Below are positions 1 through 39,817 of a DNA stretch of 39,817 nucleotides, in pieces. The position numbers and the translations under genes were made by a program. The notes beneath the pieces are model-generated. The model had not been told where the DNA came from and made no database searches. It saw only the letters and a list, made by a program, of their open reading frames with translations. This DNA comes from Escherichia phage TM1: the sequence record MT808983.1; one strand, 5' to 3'. Within the stretch, counting starts at the first letter, position 1; every line of letters starts with the position of its first letter.

Positions 1-179
1 TCACAGTTCAAGAACCTCAAGTCTCCCCATAGGCCCTCTTTTAGTCCAGACCAAAGGCCCTACCCCAGTCTATCATAAGGTGGGACCGATGGTCAAGACT
101 TCAGGTCAACGATAGGTTGAGGCTATGGCTGGAGGTCGGGACGATAGGTAGGGACTATGGGTCTGCCTCTAAGTCCCTA
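1..179. repeat. Left direct terminal repeat (DTR), identical to 39639-39817
   Basis: First 179 nt (tcacagttcaagaacctcaag...ctaagtcccta) recur at the extreme 3' end of the window; T7-like phages have terminally redundant linear genomes. Confidence 0.85.
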
Positions 180-215
180 TCTGTATAGTGTTATAGTATA
201 ACATTACGTCCTACA

Positions 216-299
216 CCTACAGTCTCACTAACCTACAGTCTCACTAACCTACAGTAACAACCATAAGACACTCACATCCTACAGTCATAGACCTACAGT
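216..299. repeat. Array of 5 copies of the octamer CCTACAGT just inside the left DTR
   Basis: CCTACAGT at 216-223, 232-239, 248-255, 278-285, 292-299; a matching array lies just inside the right DTR. T7 carries short-repeat arrays in and beside its terminal repeats. Confidence 0.7.
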
Positions 300-410
300 T
301 AATAGACACAAAGCTATAGACTTAAGGTCAAAGAAATGTTAGTCAAAGACTATATCCTCTTACACCATGAGGCCGACGATAGCTTAATCAATATTATTTC
401 AAATTACCTA

Positions 411-2658: not shown

Positions 2659-5340
2659 ATGAGCGTCATCTCTATTGACAAACACGACTTCTCTGATGTG
2701 TCGAACGCCATTGAGCCGTTTAACCTGCTGGCTGACCACTACGGGCAAGACCTTGCAGTCAAGCAGCTTCAGCTTGAGCATGAGGCATACACTGAAGGCG
2801 AGCGACGTTTCATCAAGAACCTTGAGCGCCAGACCGAGCGCGGTGAGATGGCAGACAATCAGGTCGCCAAGCCTTTGATGCAGACTCTGGTCCCTAAGAT
2901 TGCGCAAGCCGTCAAGGAGTGGCATGAAGGCCCAGACGGGAAGCTGTCAACCTCTCGTCCTAGCGTAGCGTTCACCATGTTGAGCACTGAAGATAAGGCC
3001 GTCAAGGACCGCTCTCTGCGCATCTCCTGTGAGTCTGCTGCGGTTATCATACTGAAGGTCATCCTCTCCAAGCTGGTAAAGCCTGAAGGGATACCGATTA
3101 CACCTATGGCCTCCGCGATAGGTCGCACACTTGAAGATGAGATCCGCTTCGGTCGAATCAGAGACAAGGAGCAGGAGCACTTCAAGAAGGCGATAGCTGA
3201 TAACCTGAACAAGCGAGCTGGGGCATCCTATAAGAAAGCCTACATGCAAGCGGTTGAGACCTCCATGCTGGAGCAAGGTCAACTGGAAGATGCGTGGGGA
3301 ACTTGGAGTCCGACAGAGGCGGTACACGTTGGCATCAAGATGCTTGAGATTGTCATACAGTCTACACAACTGGTCGATATTAAGCGTTATGGTGCTGGCA
3401 ATGCAGCGGCTGATGTTGAGATGGTCCACCTGTCAGACTTCTGGGTCAAGAAGATGGCACAACGTGGGTTCAGCCTTGCGGGTATCGCACCAGTCTATCA
3501 GCCTTGCGTAGTTCCACCTAAGCCGTGGACGGGTGTCGTAGGCGGTGGGTACTGGGCCAAAGGTCGCAGACCGTTACCATTGATTCGCTTAGGGTCTAAG
3601 TCTGCGGTAGCACGTTACGAAGACGTGTACATGCCGGAAGTCTATGACGCTGTGAACATCATCCAGAATACACCTTGGAAAGTTAACAAGAAGGTTCTGG
3701 ACGTGGTGAACATGGTCGAGAAGCTGAACAACACGCCTATTGACGACATCCCTCAGATGGAGCCACTAAAGCCTGAGGACTATGCGGGTGAGACCGATGA
3801 AGAACTGAAGGCATGGAAGAAAGCTGCTGCTGGTATCTATCGACGCGAGAAGGCCAGACAGTCGCGCAGATTGTCACTGAGCTTTATCGTCAACCAAGCG
3901 AACAAGTTCTCTCAGTTCAAGGCCATCTGGTTTCCATACAACATGGATTGGCGAGGTCGTGTCTACGCTGTCCCGATGTTCAACCCTCAGGGTAACGACA
4001 TGCAGAAGGGTCTCCTGACTCTGGCAGTCGGCAAGCCTATTGGTGCTGACGGTTTCAAATGGCTGAAGGTACACGGTGCAAACTGCGCGGGTGTTGATAA
4101 AGTCACCTTCGAGGAGCGAATCAAGTGGGTGGAAGACAATCACGACAACATTATGGCTGCTGCTAAGGCACCGATGGATAGTATTGAGTGGTGGGGCAAG
4201 TTAGACTCTCCGTTCTGCTTCCTTGCGTTCTGCTTCGAGTATGCTGGCGTAATGCACCACGGCCTGTCTTACTCCTGCTCGCTGCCGATAGCGTTCGATG
4301 GGTCCTGCTCTGGTATTCAGCACTTCAGCGCGATGCTTCGTGACCACATCGGTGGACATGCAGTAAACCTAACTCCATCCGGCAAGGTTCAAGACATCTA
4401 CCGCATCGTGTCTGACCGCATCGCGGAGGAACTCAAAGTCCTGCTTGTTAACGGTACGGATAACGAGATGGTGACTCACGAGGACAAGAAAACTGGTGAG
4501 ATTACCGAACGTCTCAAGCTGGGGACACGAGAGCTGGCCCGTCAGTGGCTGACCTACGGTATGTCACGTAAGGTCACTAAGCGTTCGGTCATGACTCTGG
4601 CCTACGGGTCGAAAGAGTATGGCTTCGCAGACCAAGTATACGAGGACATCGTGATGCCAGCGATTGACTCAGGGTCTGGCGCTATGTTCACTGAACCAAG
4701 CCAAGCGTCTCGCTTCATGGCTAAGATGATTTGGGAAGCTGTGAGTGTGACCGTGGTTGCTGCGGTTGACGCGATGAAGTGGCTTCAAGGTGCTGCCAAG
4801 CTGCTGGCTGCTGAGGTGAAGGACAAGAAGACTGGAGAAATCCTGAAGCCTTGCCTTCCGGTACACTGGGTAACACCTGATGGTTTCCCGGTCTGGCAGG
4901 AATACCGCAAGAAGGATACAACCCGTCTGAACCTGATGTTCTTAGGGTCATTCAACCTTCAGCCTACAGTCAACAAAGGCACGAAGAAAGAGCTGGACAA
5001 GCACAAGCAGGAGTCAGGCATTAGCCCGAACTTCGTCCACTCACAAGATGGCAGCCACCTGCGGAAGACTGTAGTCCACACTCATCGCAAGTATGGCGTG
5101 ATGTCATTCGCAGTGATTCACGATAGCTTCGGGACCATCCCGGCTGACGCTGAGTATCTGTTCCGTGGTGTCCGTGAGACGATGGTAGAGACATACCGCG
5201 ACAACGATGTGCTGCTTGACTTCTACGAGCAGTTTGAATACCAGCTTCACGAGAGCCAGCGCGACAAGCTGCCTGAGCTTCCGAAGAAAGGTAAACTAAA
5301 TATCGAAGACATCTTGTCTTCAGACTTTGCATTCGCTTAA
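2659..5340 (+). CDS. gp1: Single-subunit DNA-directed RNA polymerase (T7 gp1 homolog, 893 aa)
   Basis: Collinear similarity to recalled T7 RNAP along the whole length (e.g. PYNMDWRGRVYAVPMFNPQGNDM, DGSCSGIQHFSAMLRD, HDSFGTIPADA, C-terminal SDFAFA). Confidence 0.97.
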   Translation: MSVISIDKHDFSDVSNAIEPFNLLADHYGQDLAVKQLQLEHEAYTEGERRFIKNLERQTERGEMADNQVAKPLMQTLVPKIAQAVKEWHEGPDGKLSTSRPSVAFTMLSTEDKAVKDRSLRISCESAAVIILKVILSKLVKPEGIPITPMASAIGRTLEDEIRFGRIRDKEQEHFKKAIADNLNKRAGASYKKAYMQAVETSMLEQGQLEDAWGTWSPTEAVHVGIKMLEIVIQSTQLVDIKRYGAGNAAADVEMVHLSDFWVKKMAQRGFSLAGIAPVYQPCVVPPKPWTGVVGGGYWAKGRRPLPLIRLGSKSAVARYEDVYMPEVYDAVNIIQNTPWKVNKKVLDVVNMVEKLNNTPIDDIPQMEPLKPEDYAGETDEELKAWKKAAAGIYRREKARQSRRLSLSFIVNQANKFSQFKAIWFPYNMDWRGRVYAVPMFNPQGNDMQKGLLTLAVGKPIGADGFKWLKVHGANCAGVDKVTFEERIKWVEDNHDNIMAAAKAPMDSIEWWGKLDSPFCFLAFCFEYAGVMHHGLSYSCSLPIAFDGSCSGIQHFSAMLRDHIGGHAVNLTPSGKVQDIYRIVSDRIAEELKVLLVNGTDNEMVTHEDKKTGEITERLKLGTRELARQWLTYGMSRKVTKRSVMTLAYGSKEYGFADQVYEDIVMPAIDSGSGAMFTEPSQASRFMAKMIWEAVSVTVVAAVDAMKWLQGAAKLLAAEVKDKKTGEILKPCLPVHWVTPDGFPVWQEYRKKDTTRLNLMFLGSFNLQPTVNKGTKKELDKHKQESGISPNFVHSQDGSHLRKTVVHTHRKYGVMSFAVIHDSFGTIPADAEYLFRGVRETMVETYRDNDVLLDFYEQFEYQLHESQRDKLPELPKKGKLNIEDILSSDFAFA

Positions 5341-5354
5341 CAGGAGAGAGAGTT

Positions 5355-5555
5355 ATGGAATTTGCACACAAGCAGACTGGCGTTAAGGGTGGTACTCAAA
5401 TCGTGACCGTAACAGAACACAACGGCAAGGGTCTGGTGAAGACCACTGTCATCCCTACCGAGATGTCAAAGCAGCTTAACGTCCAGTTCAAGTGGCTGGT
5501 TAAGCAGGTGGAGCAGACGCACGAGCAAGTCCTTAAAGAGGCGGCAACCAAATGA
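5355..5555 (+). CDS. Hypothetical protein (66 aa) between RNAP and gene 1.1
   Basis: ATG with SD AGGAGAGAG; T7 has no gene at this position. Confidence 0.5.
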   Translation: MEFAHKQTGVKGGTQIVTVTEHNGKGLVKTTVIPTEMSKQLNVQFKWLVKQVEQTHEQVLKEAATK

Positions 5556-5629
5556 CATACCTACAGTTACTGGCCCTGTGGCTGGGAGCACTAGCAGTAT
5601 TCACTCTAATCCAACGCAGAAGAGGTTAA
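5552..5629 (+). CDS. Possible small hydrophobic peptide (25 aa, MTYLQLLALWLGALAVFTLIQRRRG)
   Basis: ATG overlaps the upstream stop (ATGA); predicted single transmembrane helix followed by a basic tail; very short, so tentative. Confidence 0.2.
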   Translation: MTYLQLLALWLGALAVFTLIQRRRG

Positions 5630-7803: not shown

Positions 7804-8064
7804 ATGTTTAAGAACTTAATGTTCAACCGTTATACCAGTACCTTCCACCTGTCCCACAACCCGTTCGCTTGCATTAAGCGCAACGAGAAGCTGGGATACT
7901 TCGGGAAGGCCGTTAAGCTGTCACCTACAGTCTTCGCTCTGATTACTCCGGGCAAAGCTGAAGAGGCTCGCCAGAAGCGTGAGACCAACGTACCTGTGGT
8001 CTACACTAAGTGGCCCCGCGTTCGTCTGTTCGTTGAGCTCGTGAAGGAGGTGGTAAATGGTTAA
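7804..8064 (+). CDS. Class II hypothetical protein (86 aa)
   Basis: Strong SD (AAGGAGG) before ATG 7804; first gene after the TE-like terminator. Confidence 0.6.
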   Translation: MFKNLMFNRYTSTFHLSHNPFACIKRNEKLGYFGKAVKLSPTVFALITPGKAEEARQKRETNVPVVYTKWPRVRLFVELVKEVVNG

Positions 8065-8470: not shown

Positions 8471-8629
8471 ATGACTGAGGTTGAGAAGAAATACATCGTG
8501 GAGCTTGAGGGTCGCGTTCAGTCCTTCGAGGTTCCGGTGTACGCAAAGTCTCTTGAAGAGGCTGCCCTGAAGTCCCAAGAGTATGAGGACGCTGGGTTTG
8601 TGGTCGGACGGATTCGTCCTGAGACCTAA
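8471..8629 (+). CDS. gp2: gp2-like inhibitor of host RNA polymerase (52 aa)
   Basis: [33 protein letters not shown] parallels T7 Gp2 ([34 protein letters not shown]); start placed at ATG 8471 with SD AGGAGCG rather than the upstream alternative start. Confidence 0.75.
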
Positions 8630-8648
8630 ACTATCACTGTAGGACAGA
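8625..8648 (+). promoter_or_regulatory. Phage-RNAP promoter variant (taaACTATCACTgTAGGaca)
   Basis: Family consensus with A to G at -3; precedes the SSB gene. Confidence 0.6.
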
Positions 8649-8686
8649 CGTCCAGTTCGTAACTTTAAAATAGGAGATTTACACCG

Positions 8687-10270: not shown

Positions 10271-10725
10271 TGACTACCTGTAAAGACCTTGAAGTTGGAA
10301 CACGTTACAGATTCTCAAAGAACACCCTGCTGAATAACCCCGGATTCACTGATGCTGTTTTCGAAAAGCGAGAAGACCATAGCGTACTTGTGGAGAAGGG
10401 GTGGCATCCTGAGGATTACATCGGTGAGATTACAAGCTGGAATGGTCACGATACCTACAGTGTAGAAGTTGTTGACCAGCCTCAGGTCCTGCCAGCTTCG
10501 AGCGTACCACCTGTGACTGTGAAGCGTGAAGTCCTGACCATCGACAAGATTGGTGTAGGCCAGACGTTCATCGTCCACGGAAAGCCTGAAGAAGTTTACG
10601 TGAAGATTAGCAACTCACACGTCTTCAACCATAAGCGTCTCCAGATGCACACCACGGACGCACAACGCTTCACCCAGCACCTGAATCTGGTGGTCGTAGA
10701 ATTGGTGGTGTACAATGGTAAGTAA
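10270..10725 (+). CDS. Hypothetical protein (151 aa) between endonuclease I and lysozyme
   Basis: SD AAGGAG; start and stop overlap the neighbours; no counterpart at this position in T7. Confidence 0.6.
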   Translation: MTTCKDLEVGTRYRFSKNTLLNNPGFTDAVFEKREDHSVLVEKGWHPEDYIGEITSWNGHDTYSVEVVDQPQVLPASSVPPVTVKREVLTIDKIGVGQTFIVHGKPEEVYVKISNSHVFNHKRLQMHTTDAQRFTQHLNLVVVELVVYNGK

Positions 10726-19019: not shown

Positions 19020-20588
19020 ATGGCTGAACGTGAAGGGTTCGCTGCTGAAGGCGCGAAGGCAGTTTATGATAGACTGAAGAACGGTAGACAGCCATATGAG
19101 ACACGCGCTCAGAACTGCGCTGCTGTCACTATCCCGTCACTGTTTCCTAAGGAGTCAGACAACTCGTCTACGGAATACGTGACGCCGTGGCAAGCTGTAG
19201 GTGCTCGCTGTTTGAACAACTTGGCTGCAAAGCTGATGCTGGCATTATTCCCTCAGTCACCGTGGATGCGACTTACAGTCTCCGAATATGAGGCCAAGAC
19301 CTTGAGTCAGGACTCAGAGGCTGCTGCTCGTGTTGACGAAGGTCTGGCTATGGTCGAGCGTGTGTTGATGGCCTACATGGAGACTAACAGTTTCCGTGTG
19401 CCATTGTTCGAAGCTCTGAAGCAGCTTATCGTCTCCGGTAACTGTCTGCTCTACATTCCAGAGCCTGAACAGGGAACCTACAGTCCTATGCGAATGTACC
19501 GCTTAGTGTCCTACGTTGTTCAACGTGATGCTTTCGGTAATATCTTGCAGATTGTAACTCTCGACAAGGTAGCGTTTAGTGCTCTACCGGAAGACGTTAA
19601 GTCCCAACTCAACGCAGAAGACTATGAGCCTGACACCGAGCTGGAAGTGTATACGCACATCTACCGTCAGGACGACGAGTATCTGCGCTACGAGGAGGTG
19701 GAAGGAATTGAGGTAGCAGGGACCGAGGGTTCTTACCCACTGACTGCCTGTCCGTACATCCCGGTGCGAATGGTTCGACTGGATGGTGAAGACTATGGTC
19801 GTTCTTACTGCGAGGAGTATCTGGGAGACCTGAACTCGCTGGAGACGATTACAGAAGCTATCACCAAAATGGCTAAGGTAGCCTCCAAGGTGGTGGGCCT
19901 CGTTAACCCGAACGGTATCACGCAACCTCGTCGTCTGAACAAGGCGGCTACAGGTGAGTTCGTGGCTGGTCGCGTTGAGGACATCAACTTCCTGCAACTG
20001 ACGAAAGGTCAGGACTTTACGATTGCCAAGTCGGTGGCTGATGCTATCGAGCAACGTTTAGGCTGGGCCTTCCTTCTTAATAGTGCTGTTCAGCGTAATG
20101 CCGAGCGAGTCACTGCTGAAGAGATTCGTTATGTTGCTGGCGAACTGGAGGCGACCTTAGGTGGCGTGTACTCAGTACAATCCCAAGAGCTTCAGCTACC
20201 TATCGTCCGTGTACTGATGAACCAGCTTCAGTCTGCTGGCATGATTCCTGACCTTCCGAAAGAAGCGGTAGAGCCTACGGTCTCCACAGGTCTTGAAGCG
20301 TTAGGTCGTGGTCAGGACTTGGAGAAGCTGACTCAGGCAGTCAACATGATGACAGGTCTACAGCCTCTGCAACAGGACCCGGACATTAACTTGCCTACCC
20401 TGAAGCTGCGACTGCTGAATGCCTTAGGCATTGATACTGCGGGTCTTCTGCTGACTCAGGACGAGAAGATTCAGCGCATGGCTGAGCAGTCGTCTCAACA
20501 GGCAGTTGTCAAAGGTGCTAGTGCTGCTGGTGCTAACATGGGCGCTGCTGTAGGTCAGGGAGCTGGTGAGGACATGGCTCAAGCCTAA
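19020..20588 (+). CDS. gp8: Head-to-tail connector / portal protein (T7 gp8 homolog, 522 aa)
   Basis: Position, size and acidic C-terminus as in T7 gp8; SD AAGGAGG. Confidence 0.9.
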   Translation: MAEREGFAAEGAKAVYDRLKNGRQPYETRAQNCAAVTIPSLFPKESDNSSTEYVTPWQAVGARCLNNLAAKLMLALFPQSPWMRLTVSEYEAKTLSQDSEAAARVDEGLAMVERVLMAYMETNSFRVPLFEALKQLIVSGNCLLYIPEPEQGTYSPMRMYRLVSYVVQRDAFGNILQIVTLDKVAFSALPEDVKSQLNAEDYEPDTELEVYTHIYRQDDEYLRYEEVEGIEVAGTEGSYPLTACPYIPVRMVRLDGEDYGRSYCEEYLGDLNSLETITEAITKMAKVASKVVGLVNPNGITQPRRLNKAATGEFVAGRVEDINFLQLTKGQDFTIAKSVADAIEQRLGWAFLLNSAVQRNAERVTAEEIRYVAGELEATLGGVYSVQSQELQLPIVRVLMNQLQSAGMIPDLPKEAVEPTVSTGLEALGRGQDLEKLTQAVNMMTGLQPLQQDPDINLPTLKLRLLNALGIDTAGLLLTQDEKIQRMAEQSSQQAVVKGASAAGANMGAAVGQGAGEDMAQA

Positions 20589-23730: not shown

Positions 23731-26088
23731 ATGCCACTAATTACTCAATCAATCAAGAACCTTAAAGGTGGCATTAGCCAGCAGCCTGATATACTGAGGT
23801 TCTCAGACCAAGGCGAGGCACAGGTTAACTGCTGGTCATCCGAGAGTGATGGCCTCCAGAAGCGCCCACCTACAGTCTTCAAGAGACGTCTTAACATCGA
23901 CGTTGGGAGCAACCCTAAGTTCCACCTGATTAACCGTGACGAGCATGAGCAGTATTACATCGTGTTCAATGGGTCAAACATTCAGGTAGTTGACTTGAGT
24001 GGTAATCAATACTCAGTGTCAGGTGAGGTAGACTACGTTGAGTCCTCCAACCCACGAGATGACATCCGTGTCGTTACCGTGGCAGACTATACGTTCGTCG
24101 TTAACCGTAAGGTTGTCGTCAAAGGTGGAAACGAGAAGTCACACTCTGGTTATAACCGCAAAGCACGAGCTTTAATTAACCTGCGTGGTGGGCAGTATGG
24201 TCGAACCCTTAAGGTGGGAATTAATGGTGGCGTTAAGGTCTCGCATAAGCTACCAGCAGGTAATGATGCCGAGAATGACCCGCCTAAGGTGGACGCTCAA
24301 GCCATTGGTGCAGCTCTTAGAGACCTTCTTGTTCAGGCCTATCCTGACTTCACGTTCGACCTTGGGTCTGGATTCCTGCTAATCACAGCTCCTTCAGGGA
24401 CTGACATTAACTCAGTTGAGACGGAGGATGGCTACGCTAACCAGCTAATAAGCCCAGTCCTAGACACTGTGCAGACAATCTCTAAACTACCTCTTGCAGC
24501 TCCTAACGGGTATATCATTAAGATTCAAGGTGAGACAAACAGTAGCGCCGATGAATACTACGTGATGTATGACTCCAACACTAAGACGTGGAAGGAGACA
24601 GTGGAGCCGGGAGTTGTTACTGGGTTCGATGTCGCCACAATGCCACATGCTCTGGTCAGAAAGTCTGATGGCTCCTTTGAGTTCAAGACTCTGGATTGGT
24701 CCAAGCGTGGTGCTGGTAACGATGACACAAACCCTATGCCTAGCTTCGTGGATGCTACGATTAACGATGTGTTCTTCTACAGGAACAGGCTAGGGTTCTT
24801 GTCAGGCGAGAACGTAATCATGAGCCGTTCAGCCAGCTACTTTGCGTTCTTCCCTAAGAGTGTGGCTACACTGAGTGATGATGATCCTATTGATGTAGCT
24901 GTAAGTAACCCTCGTATCTCAATCCTTAAGTATGCCGTTCCGTTTAGCGAGCAGCTACTACTTTGGTCGGATGAGGTTCAGTTCGTGATGACAAGCTCTG
25001 GGGTACTTACCTCGAAGTCTATCCAGCTTGATGTAGGCTCAGAGTTTGCCTTAGGTGATAATGCCAGACCGTTCGCTGTAGGACGCTCCGTCTTCTTCTC
25101 AGCTCCTCGTGGGTCATTCACCAGCATTAAGCGATACTTCGCTGTAGCTGATGTGTCTGATGTGAAGGATGCCGATGATACAACTGGTCACGTACTGTCC
25201 TACATCCCTAACGGGGTGTTTGATATTCAAGGTACAGGTACTGAGAACTACATCTGCGTCAACTCTACAGGTGCATACAACCGAATCTACATCTACAAGT
25301 TCTTGTTTAAGGACGGCGTACAGCTTCAATCCTCTTGGTCACACTGGGAGTTCCCTAAAGATGATAAGATTCTGGCGTCTGCTTCTATTGGCTCTACCAT
25401 GTTCATCGTTCGTCAGCACCAAGGAGGGGTAGACATTGAGCACCTTAAGTTCATCAAGGAGGCAACTGACTTCCCGTCAGAGCCATATAGACTACACATT
25501 GACTCCAAGGTGTCTATGGTAATTCCAATTGGCTCATATAATGCTGACAACTATAAGACTACGGTTGACATTGGTGCTGCTTATGGCGGCAACGCTCCGT
25601 CTCCCGGTCGGTACTATCTGATTGACAGTCATGGTGCTTATGTGGACCTTGGGGACTTGACCAGTATCTCTACTGTGGTTATCCTCAACGGCGATTGGTC
25701 AGGACGCACAGTGTTCATCGGACGGTCTTATCTGATGTCCTACAAGTTTTCACGGTTCCTGATTAAGATTGAAGACGATAGTGGTACTCAGTCTGAAGAC
25801 ACGGGTCGTCTACAGCTTCGTCGGGCTTGGGTAAACTACAAAGACACTGGCGCTCTGAGACTCATTGTCAGAAACGGTGAGCGGGAGTTCGTGAATACCT
25901 TCAACGGGTACACCCTTGGTCAGCAAACCATCGGGACTACAAACATCGGTGACGGGCAGTATCGCTTCGCTATGAATGGTAACGCATTAACCACGAGTCT
26001 AACCTTAGAGTCCGACTATCCTACCCCAGTGTCAATCGTTGGGTGTGGCTGGGAGGCGTCATACGCTAAGAAAGCTCGTTCCGTTTAA
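23731..26088 (+). CDS. gp12: Tail tubular protein B (T7 gp12 homolog, 785 aa)
   Basis: Size and position after gp11; SD AAGGAGGG. Confidence 0.9.
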   Translation: MPLITQSIKNLKGGISQQPDILRFSDQGEAQVNCWSSESDGLQKRPPTVFKRRLNIDVGSNPKFHLINRDEHEQYYIVFNGSNIQVVDLSGNQYSVSGEVDYVESSNPRDDIRVVTVADYTFVVNRKVVVKGGNEKSHSGYNRKARALINLRGGQYGRTLKVGINGGVKVSHKLPAGNDAENDPPKVDAQAIGAALRDLLVQAYPDFTFDLGSGFLLITAPSGTDINSVETEDGYANQLISPVLDTVQTISKLPLAAPNGYIIKIQGETNSSADEYYVMYDSNTKTWKETVEPGVVTGFDVATMPHALVRKSDGSFEFKTLDWSKRGAGNDDTNPMPSFVDATINDVFFYRNRLGFLSGENVIMSRSASYFAFFPKSVATLSDDDPIDVAVSNPRISILKYAVPFSEQLLLWSDEVQFVMTSSGVLTSKSIQLDVGSEFALGDNARPFAVGRSVFFSAPRGSFTSIKRYFAVADVSDVKDADDTTGHVLSYIPNGVFDIQGTGTENYICVNSTGAYNRIYIYKFLFKDGVQLQSSWSHWEFPKDDKILASASIGSTMFIVRQHQGGVDIEHLKFIKEATDFPSEPYRLHIDSKVSMVIPIGSYNADNYKTTVDIGAAYGGNAPSPGRYYLIDSHGAYVDLGDLTSISTVVILNGDWSGRTVFIGRSYLMSYKFSRFLIKIEDDSGTQSEDTGRLQLRRAWVNYKDTGALRLIVRNGEREFVNTFNGYTLGQQTIGTTNIGDGQYRFAMNGNALTTSLTLESDYPTPVSIVGCGWEASYAKKARSV

Positions 26089-35834: not shown

Positions 35835-36029
35835 ATGATTGAGTTAGACTTCAAGAATGAGGTCCTTAAAGCCTCTCCTATCGTCGGGACCGCTGCGGCT
35901 GATGGTGCCAGTCGGTTCTTCTTCGGACTCACACTGAACGAATGGTTCTACGTTGCAGCTATCGCGTACACCGTTGTCCAGATTGGTGTGCTGGTCTACA
36001 AAACGATTAAAGGAGGCGGTAAAACATGA
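35835..36029 (+). CDS. gp17.5: Class II holin (T7 gp17.5 homolog, 64 aa)
   Basis: FFGLTLNEWFYVAAIAYTVVQIG matches T7 holin (FFGLSLNEWFYVAAIAYTVVQIG). Confidence 0.9.
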   Translation: MIELDFKNEVLKASPIVGTAAADGASRFFFGLTLNEWFYVAAIAYTVVQIGVLVYKTIKGGGKT

Positions 36030-36289
36030 CGCAGATGGACTTAGAGAAGTTCCTCTTGATGCTGGATACTGAACGTGCTCGACTCATGCTGCAAGACCTG
36101 CGGGATGACTCTAAGCGTTCACCTCAGCTCTACAACGCCATTGAGAAGCTACTGGCTCGTCACAACTTTGTGTTAAGCAAGGTGTCTGTGGACGAGAAGA
36201 CGCTCGCTGATATGGAGGCCCTGAACGCAGAGTACGATAAGGTGCTTTCAGAGACTGAGGATAATGACACCGGTTATGGTATTCAATAA
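36026..36289 (+). CDS. gp18: Terminase small subunit (T7 gp18 homolog, 87 aa)
   Basis: LMLDTERA...SKRSPQLYNAIEKLLARHNF parallels T7 gp18 (EMLDTAMA...RRSPQLYNAINKLLDRHKF). Confidence 0.85.
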   Translation: MTQMDLEKFLLMLDTERARLMLQDLRDDSKRSPQLYNAIEKLLARHNFVLSKVSVDEKTLADMEALNAEYDKVLSETEDNDTGYGIQ

Positions 36290-39040: not shown

Positions 39041-39064
39041 ACTTAACTATCACTATAGGGAAGA
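39041..39064 (+). promoter_or_regulatory. Phage-RNAP promoter (ttaACTATCACTATAGGGaag) near the right end (phiOR position)
   Basis: Family consensus; predicted +1 G at 39058; T7 has a promoter at the equivalent right-end position. Confidence 0.8.
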
Positions 39065-39401: not shown

Positions 39402-39551
39402 CGCCGTAATGGTAACAATCAACGAAAGTAAGACCTAAGGTCAGTTCATAGCTGACGCTACTCTACTGACCTTAGCTACTGTAGTCAAGGACTTTAGGTA
39501 ACACCTTAAGAGAAGCTCACTTAGGGTCATCCTACTTATTGGTCTATCCTA

Positions 39552-39589
39552 GTGTCACCTGACCTACGGTCCTTGACCTACAGTAGCTG
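39552..39589. repeat. Array of 3 CCTAC(A/G)GT octamers just inside the right DTR
   Basis: CCTACGGT at 39552-39559, CCTACAGT at 39566-39573 and 39582-39589; same motif as the left-end array. Confidence 0.65.
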
Positions 39590-39638
39590 CCACCTACAGT
39601 CTTCGATGAGTTTTGGACCAAAAGTTTGAGACCACATC

Positions 39639-39817
39639 TCACAGTTCAAGAACCTCAAGTCTCCCCATAGGCCCTCTTTTAGTCCAGACCAAAGGCCCTA
39701 CCCCAGTCTATCATAAGGTGGGACCGATGGTCAAGACTTCAGGTCAACGATAGGTTGAGGCTATGGCTGGAGGTCGGGACGATAGGTAGGGACTATGGGT
39801 CTGCCTCTAAGTCCCTA
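39639..39817. repeat. Right direct terminal repeat, identical to 1-179
   Basis: Sequence tcacagttcaag...ctaagtcccta matches the first 179 nt of the window. Confidence 0.85.

Follow-up and report, generated by a model that had tools for sequence, protein, structure and literature searches.

Escherichia phage TM1 (record MT808983.1) carries short direct repeats just inside both of its direct terminal repeats (DTRs), which raises the question of whether these repeats are a real and shared feature of the genome ends and, if so, what they could do there. The window, that is the whole stretch of 39,817 nt that we analysed, is a complete T7-like (Kayfunavirus-like, K1F-like) phage genome. It has direct terminal repeats and the T7 gene order, it encodes a single-subunit RNA polymerase, a T7-type gene 4 primase-helicase, gp18 (PF11123; small terminase; 36026-36289) and the gp19 large terminase, and many Kayfunavirus (K1F-like) genomes match its left 1.2 kb at 87-90% identity. 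The DTR is exact and 179 bp long (1-179 = 39639-39817), the length also reported for the K1F repeat (PMC4925675). T7, T3 and K11 start with TCTCA(C/T)AG, the TM1 record starts with TCACAG, and TC (39637-39638) precedes the right DTR; the true repeat may be 181 bp long, with two bases absent from the record at its left end (next to 1-2). Nine strong phage promoters share a common consensus, CTAAACTATCACTATAGGRA; the last one, at 39051, is found upstream of the right array, the place occupied by phiOR in T7. A sigma-70-like promoter lies at 552-581.

Short-repeat arrays at the two ends of TM1

The repeated element is the 8-mer CCTACAGT (CCTACAG in its 7-bp form), accompanied by the variant CCTACGGT. 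The features of the two ends are:

1-179, no strand given: left DTR, exactly identical to 39639-39817
178-185, plus strand: TATCTGTA, resembling a class-II pause/termination signal (T7 RNA polymerase signal ATCTGTT) by its sequence, at the boundary between DTR and unique DNA
210-215, plus strand: truncated copy CCTACA, abutting the first full copy
215-255, plus strand: perfect 16-bp tandem of ACCTACAGTCTCACTA, 2.6 units (repeat analysis, family D3), with motif copies at 216-223, 232-239 and 248-255
278-285, plus strand: motif copy 4, CCTACAGT, its position kept in relatives
292-299, plus strand: motif copy 5, CCTACAGT, present as CCTACAGT or CCTACGGT in relatives
39548-39555, plus strand: degenerate copy CCTAGTGT, in register and 15 bp before the next copy; pattern CCTANNGT, kept in most relatives
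39563-39570, plus strand: right-array copy 1, CCTACGGT, motif columns invariant in 23 distinct Kayfunavirus right flanks
39577-39584, plus strand: right-array copy 2, CCTACAGT, the same in nearly every one of the 23 distinct right flanks
39593-39600, plus strand: right-array copy 3, CCTACAGT, varying among relatives
39605-39638, plus strand: conserved block GATGAGTTTTGGACCAAAAGTTTGAGACCACATC directly before the right DTR, identical in 8/8 relatives
39639-39817, no strand given: right DTR, exactly identical to 1-179

On the left, 37 nt separate the DTR from the array, which spans 216-299, exactly as given in the preliminary description, with five plus-strand copies of CCTACAGT at 216, 232, 248, 278 and 292 (spacings of 16, 16, 30 and 14 bp). 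On the right, two exact copies and one CCTACGGT end 38 nt before the DTR, spaced by 15, 14 and 16 bp when the degenerate copy at 39548 is counted. Their coordinates had been put about 11 nt too low, at 39552-39589, where the array actually occupies 39563-39600.

Counting both strands, the genome contains CCTACAGT 16 times where 1.62 matches are expected, and 100 shuffles gave at most 5. Of the 13 exact plus-strand copies, seven are concentrated in the 2 x 121 = 242 nt adjacent to the DTRs, or 0.6% of the genome (binomial P 5e-13), and the Poisson probability of this clustering, calculated from the internal rate, is 2e-14. The eight array copies, CCTACGGT included, are all on the plus strand, a number of direct copies in the same orientation far above chance, while six plus-strand and three minus-strand copies of CCTACAGT lie outside the arrays. 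The clustering is real and is not due to base composition. The end enrichment claimed at the outset is thus borne out by the genome-wide motif count, and the motif is not equally frequent throughout.

The left array is preceded by a pause-like element, ATCTGTA at 179-185, which is pause-like by sequence alone and whose seventh base is A where the T7 signal has T; the class-II signal itself is ATCTGTT (bioRxiv 10.1101/2021.01.11.426313). The repeat edge (marked by a slash) reads CCCT/ATCTGTT in T7, T3 and K11 and CCCTA/TCTGTAT in TM1, and the K11 annotation places a 'concatemeric junction' (180-188) at the position of its ATCTGTT. All eight Kayfunavirus relatives have ATCTGTAT at the DTR edge. 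No ORF of at least 40 codons exists in 180-335, and the CDS annotated across this region in Peacock (149-244) looks spurious.

Some further elements lie close to the arrays. Between the pause-like site and the left array, an A/T-rich near-palindrome (TAGTGTTATA/TATAACATTA) occupies 184-206; it is common to one relative only (L006), and the other relatives have degenerate motif copies there (CCTTGAGTC, CCATAAGTC). The region 406-438, where T7 has phiOL and A1, combines a TTGACT hexamer with an overlapping, degenerate core that resembles a phage promoter (GACTATAGG at 413); together with the last left motif copy, this region forms an 18-nt inverted repeat (288-305 / 408-425). On the other side of the genome, downstream of a gene 19.5-like ORF, 39432-39478 holds a perfect 11-bp inverted repeat (CTAAGGTCAGT ... 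ACTGACCTTAG) with a 19-nt loop, which is conserved in relatives and has a good RNA fold (z of -3.4); it has no T-run, so that it is not a typical intrinsic terminator. Inside the left DTR, at 14-25, lies a degenerate relative of the motif, ACCTCAAGTCTC (repeat family D3), which stands where T7 has ACCTAAAGT.

Counterparts in Kayfunavirus, T7, T3 and K11

We compared TM1 with 8 GenBank Kayfunavirus genomes and with IMG/VR contigs that encode a gp18 at least 90% identical and have locatable flanks. The motif occurs on both flanks of the repeat in all eight GenBank genomes, always on the plus strand, with 2-7 copies on the left and 1-2 exact copies plus CCTACGGT on the right, separated by spacers that differ; the fewest exact left copies (2) were found in relative L007, and the 15-16-bp tandem units on the left vary from 1 to 5 among relatives. 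The IMG/VR relatives display the same CCTACAG flank pattern, so that the arrays are conserved within the lineage by three sets of sequences (8/8 GenBank genomes, the IMG/VR relatives and 23 distinct right flanks). The motif had initially been called specific to this phage. This does not hold: as judged from these comparisons, CCTACAG arrays are a feature of the whole genus and not peculiar to TM1.

An alignment of the 23 distinct right flanks resolves which positions are kept. GACCTACGGTCCTTGACCTACAGT is essentially invariant, three sequences deviating by a single base or a small gap, while the third copy (39593) drifts between CCTACAG, CCTACGG, CCTATAG, CCTTAAG and CCTAAGG. The first 15 bases of the block at 39605-39638 are identical in all 23, and T7, T3 and K11 have a related A/T-rich block before the right repeat (...TTTAA.AAT.TACCA.AAAA.TCTGA.TG... 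or ...TTTGAGACC...). The core element for recognition or cleavage would more probably be this block than the arrays.

Likeness to T7, proposed from the start, was confirmed and extends to T3 and K11. Dunn and Studier (1983) reportedly gave the names SRL and SRR to the short-repeat arrays that flank the T7 terminal repeats. The T7 sequence (NC_001604) contains CCTAAAG 22 times on the plus strand and three times on the minus strand: of the plus-strand copies, eight follow the 160-bp terminal repeat at 175-332 with a period of 13 bp, two precede the right repeat (39671 and 39700; span 39671-39700), and each repeat contains three. In T3, CCTAAAG and CCTGTAG are found on both flanks. K11 has ACCTGAGG on both flanks with a spacing of about 13 bp, in the same layout and orientation as TM1, as do K11-like contigs, where CCTGAGG is common to both sides in 28/28 loci having both flanks. 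Among contigs with a T7/T3-type gp18, CCTAAAG is present in every right flank except that of L111, which has the most divergent gp18, and in 5/7 readable left flanks, the other two having tandems of CATAAAG or CCTAACG.

T7 and TM1 thus share a plus-strand CCTNNAG(T) motif of 7-8 bp every 13-16 bp, directly internal to both repeats, with more copies on the left than on the right and partly in perfect tandems. They differ in the central bases (CCTACAG in TM1 vs CCTAAAG in T7), in the tandem unit (16 vs 13 bp), in the number of copies outside the repeat (5 + 3 vs 8 + 2) and inside it, where T7 has three exact copies per repeat and TM1 has degenerate relatives only. The landmarks follow one another in the same order in TM1, T7, T3 and K11: rightmost phage promoter (39051 in TM1), right array, conserved block, repeat, ATCTGT, left array and early promoters. 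With a CCTNNAG-family motif spaced by about 13-16 bp in each (CCTACAG in TM1, CCTAAAG in T7 and T3, CCTGAGG in K11), the TM1 arrays are, on grounds of position and sequence family, the counterparts of the T7 arrays (positional homology), and CCTACAG appears as a new motif variant of a long-known feature. The genome ends of TM1 fit the standard T7 end architecture, which is knowledge at the level of annotation. When phages are grouped by their gp18, each clade has its own motif, the same on both flanks, CCTAAAG for T7/T3, CCTGAGG for K11-like and CCTACAG for Kayfunavirus; since the clades are whole-genome lineages, any other phage protein would match the motif just as well. Three lineages with three motif variants, each on both flanks, provide a testable handle (swaps of motif or gp18), and this is the most useful product of our analysis.

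A possible role at the concatemer junction

In a concatemer, the right array, a single terminal repeat and the left array form one stretch of about 450 bp, in which the motif copies all point one way across the junction, 14-16 bp apart. The copies could serve as redundant docking sites of low specificity for a phage-encoded DNA maturation or packaging protein, the most likely reader being the small terminase gp18; such sites would mark the concatemer junction and help to assemble or position the terminase-prohead complex. The arrays adjoin the presumed core signals, namely the repeat with the pause-like site at its right-hand boundary, and the conserved block that precedes the right repeat. 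We infer binding, binder and packaging role alike, and we give docking by the maturation/packaging machinery, with gp18 as the likeliest reader, a little less than an even chance.

Several observations bear on this proposal. A clade-specific motif that is found on both flanks, in one orientation, and that is kept while the spacers diverge fits a trans-acting factor that co-evolves with it at the junction. Left-right similarity could also persist through recombination across the short repeat, with no binding factor involved. A published model divides T7 Pac into PacB, which gp18 recognises, and PacC, which gp19 cuts (PMC9860248). The TM1 arrays lie in the same neighbourhood of the concatemer junction as PacB/PacC of T3 and T7, in a genome with the same machinery genes.

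Repeated terminase-binding elements around a cut site are a known design, exemplified by the hexamers of P1 pac and the R sites of lambda cosB. There, as in the arrays, several short direct repeats stand at a terminase site (on both sides of the cut in P1), and binding has been demonstrated; the sequences and proteins are unrelated to those considered here, so that the analogy is one of design only. Plasmid-transduction deletions in T7 (Chung and Hinkle 1990) are said to have placed the essential packaging signal in a core of about 170 bp around the repeat, in which case most of the array copies would be dispensable. Any requirement must also be loose, given the variable copy number (two exact left copies in L007) and the replacement of the motif by CATAAAG or CCTAACG in T7-like contigs. 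In the accessible literature (full text; the K1F, phiYeO3-12 and phiA1122 genome papers) we found no description or functional test of the arrays, and a search for a solved structure of a gp18 relative returned none. For K1F-like phage engineering or packaging plasmids, the arrays, the pause-like site and the pre-repeat block are cis elements to keep.

Three other explanations were weighed against docking. The arrays could be filler without sequence-specific function that separates the repeat from the first elements with a function and is prone to slippage and recombination, the two flanks, about 180 bp apart in concatemers, being kept alike by tandem expansion and exchange. Perfect tandem units, a copy number that shifts between close relatives, motif variants in some lineages and the poor conservation of the third right-hand copy are what such a process would leave behind. 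However, arrays are present on both flanks in every lineage examined, although their surroundings are not alignable between genera, and all copies have one orientation; moreover, non-tandem copies keep the motif amid unrelated spacers (278, 292; 39563, 39577), and two right-hand copies are essentially invariant in the 23 distinct sequences while nearby columns vary. We consider filler unlikely. A role in end replication, which we hold to be improbable to a similar degree, would mean that the flanks carry sites, just internal to each repeat, at which the gene 4 primase starts on the lagging-strand template, which would fix the start of the last Okazaki fragment and leave the repeat single-stranded for concatemer formation. 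The pentamers GGGTC, TGGTC and GTGTC, which we take to be the recognition types of the T7 gene 4 primase, peak genome-wide in both arrays of T7 (L002), in the orientation of the lagging-strand template, with 5 per 150 nt (minus-strand template, 175-375) and 4 per 150 nt (plus-strand template, 39600-39775). The distal T7-type unit is CCTAAAGACCA, and its GACCA is kept even where CCTAAAG has become CCTAACG. The gene 4 protein of TM1 is T7-like, and GGGTC, TGGTC and GTGTC all occur at 39524-39556 (top 3% of 150-nt windows), with GACAC at 267 and 305. Yet CCTACAGT has no GAC on the plus strand and therefore cannot offer the left end a T7-type site in the required orientation; nor can the 16-bp tandem unit, the sites occurring beside the motif copies, and the left-flank enrichment in TM1 is weak (2 sites, top 12%). 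Primase sites would account for the neighbouring sequence and not for the motif, and the site types are those of T7, which may not be those of the TM1 primase.

The arrays could also act on transcription across the concatemer junction, as DNA or RNA elements met by the phage RNA polymerase coming from promoter 39051, either modulating class-II-like pausing and termination or acting as decoy promoter cores. All copies share the polarity of transcription, and the left array begins about 30 nt after the pause-like ATCTGTA; a point against is that the right array is situated far upstream of this site. Read on the opposite strand, the motif gives ACTGTAGG, which differs from the promoter core ACTATAGG by one base and is identical to the core of a promoter variant before gene 2.5 (8635-8643); in T7, too, a single base separates the motif from the reverse complement of the promoter core. 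The likeness is only partial in T3 and fails in K11, where CCTGAGG would have to match a core that is presumably of the CACTATAGG type. Upstream promoter positions give the polymerase its specificity, and the motif has none of them. We regard a transcriptional role as very unlikely. The simpler idea that the arrays are promoters in reverse was rejected: the reverse-complemented array unit matches at the core ACTGTAGG alone and not over the full consensus CTAAACTATCACTATAGGRA, besides the failure in K11 and, partly, in T3.

Motif copies and look-alikes elsewhere in the genome

Outside the arrays, five plus-strand copies are conserved among relatives:

5560-5567, plus strand: internal copy ACCTACAGT, just after a stop codon and inside a possible 25-codon ORF, kept in 7/8 relatives
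7924-7931, plus strand: internal copy ACCTACAGTCTTC, kept in 4/4 relatives having the gene
10454-10461, plus strand: internal copy ACCTACAGT, kept in 3/3 alignable relatives
19477-19484, plus strand: internal copy ACCTACAGT in the portal gene, kept in 7/8 relatives while neighbouring synonymous sites vary
23869-23876, plus strand: internal copy ACCTACAGTCTTC in the tail tubular B gene, kept in 8/8 relatives

A sixth copy, at 4963, is kept in no relative, and an A precedes five of the six (ACCTACAGT). In synonymous-codon shuffles (n = 1000), the six internal plus-strand copies of CCTACAGT compare with 1.78 expected (P about 0.001), and the five copies of ACCTACAGT with 1.21 expected, a count reached by 0/1000 shuffles. 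No such excess of CCTAAAG is seen in T7. Because the relatives are about 95% identical, the conservation of an 8-mer carries little weight here, and how these sites relate to the arrays is uncertain. A peptide repeat was rejected as the origin of the plus-strand copies, which are read in three frames (P-T-V, T-Y-S and Y-L-Q). The 14-mer CACCTACAGTCTTC shared by 7922, 23867 and 39591 was set aside as a coincidence; the flanks of the 39593 copy vary among relatives. The possible ORF around the first site (5552-5629, MTYLQLLALWLGALAVFTLIQRRRG) overlaps the stop of the preceding small gene (ATGA) and would encode a hydrophobic product resembling a small membrane peptide.

A bolder reading would connect the internal copies with the ends: the central bases of CCTNNAG (AA in T7/T3, GA(G) in K11-like phages, AC in Kayfunavirus) might be a lineage code read by a co-evolving protein, most likely gp18, and the same protein might use the conserved plus-strand internal sites (5560, 7924, 10454, 19477 and 23869), for example as secondary loading or checkpoint sites in polar packaging or concatemer processing. 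We find this doubtful. We know of no function assigned to the flanking repeats of the T7 group since the T7 sequence was published; if the lineage code were true, comparative genomics combined with motif swaps would give them one.

The three minus-strand internal copies are not array-related. Their number is as expected (2.8 in codon shuffles), and each has another context: 8636 is the core of a phage promoter variant (aaactatCACTGTAGGacag) upstream of gene 2.5, 18119 overlaps a stop codon and a ribosome-binding site, and 38218 is coding. The promoter variant itself (8623-8651, gacctaaactatCACTGTAGGacagacgt) has G for A at -3 and is conserved in 8/8 relatives; when reverse-complemented, its core gives the array motif exactly.

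Two early ORFs (776 and 1124) are each preceded by one copy of a duplicated leader, about 90 nt long (692-765 and 1047-1113; repeat families D1 and D8). The preliminary description had also placed the motif in this leader, as TAACTACAGG, which turned out to be a different element: it has two mismatches to the 8-mer, as have 212 plus-strand sites, and it is the 5' arm of a hairpin. In both leader copies (704 and 1059), the partner of TAACTACAGG is CCTGACTGATAGTC, and the resulting hairpin contains an internal loop (z-scores of -1.9 and -3.8). By analogy with the sites before T7 early genes, these hairpins are probably processing sites of the RNase III type.
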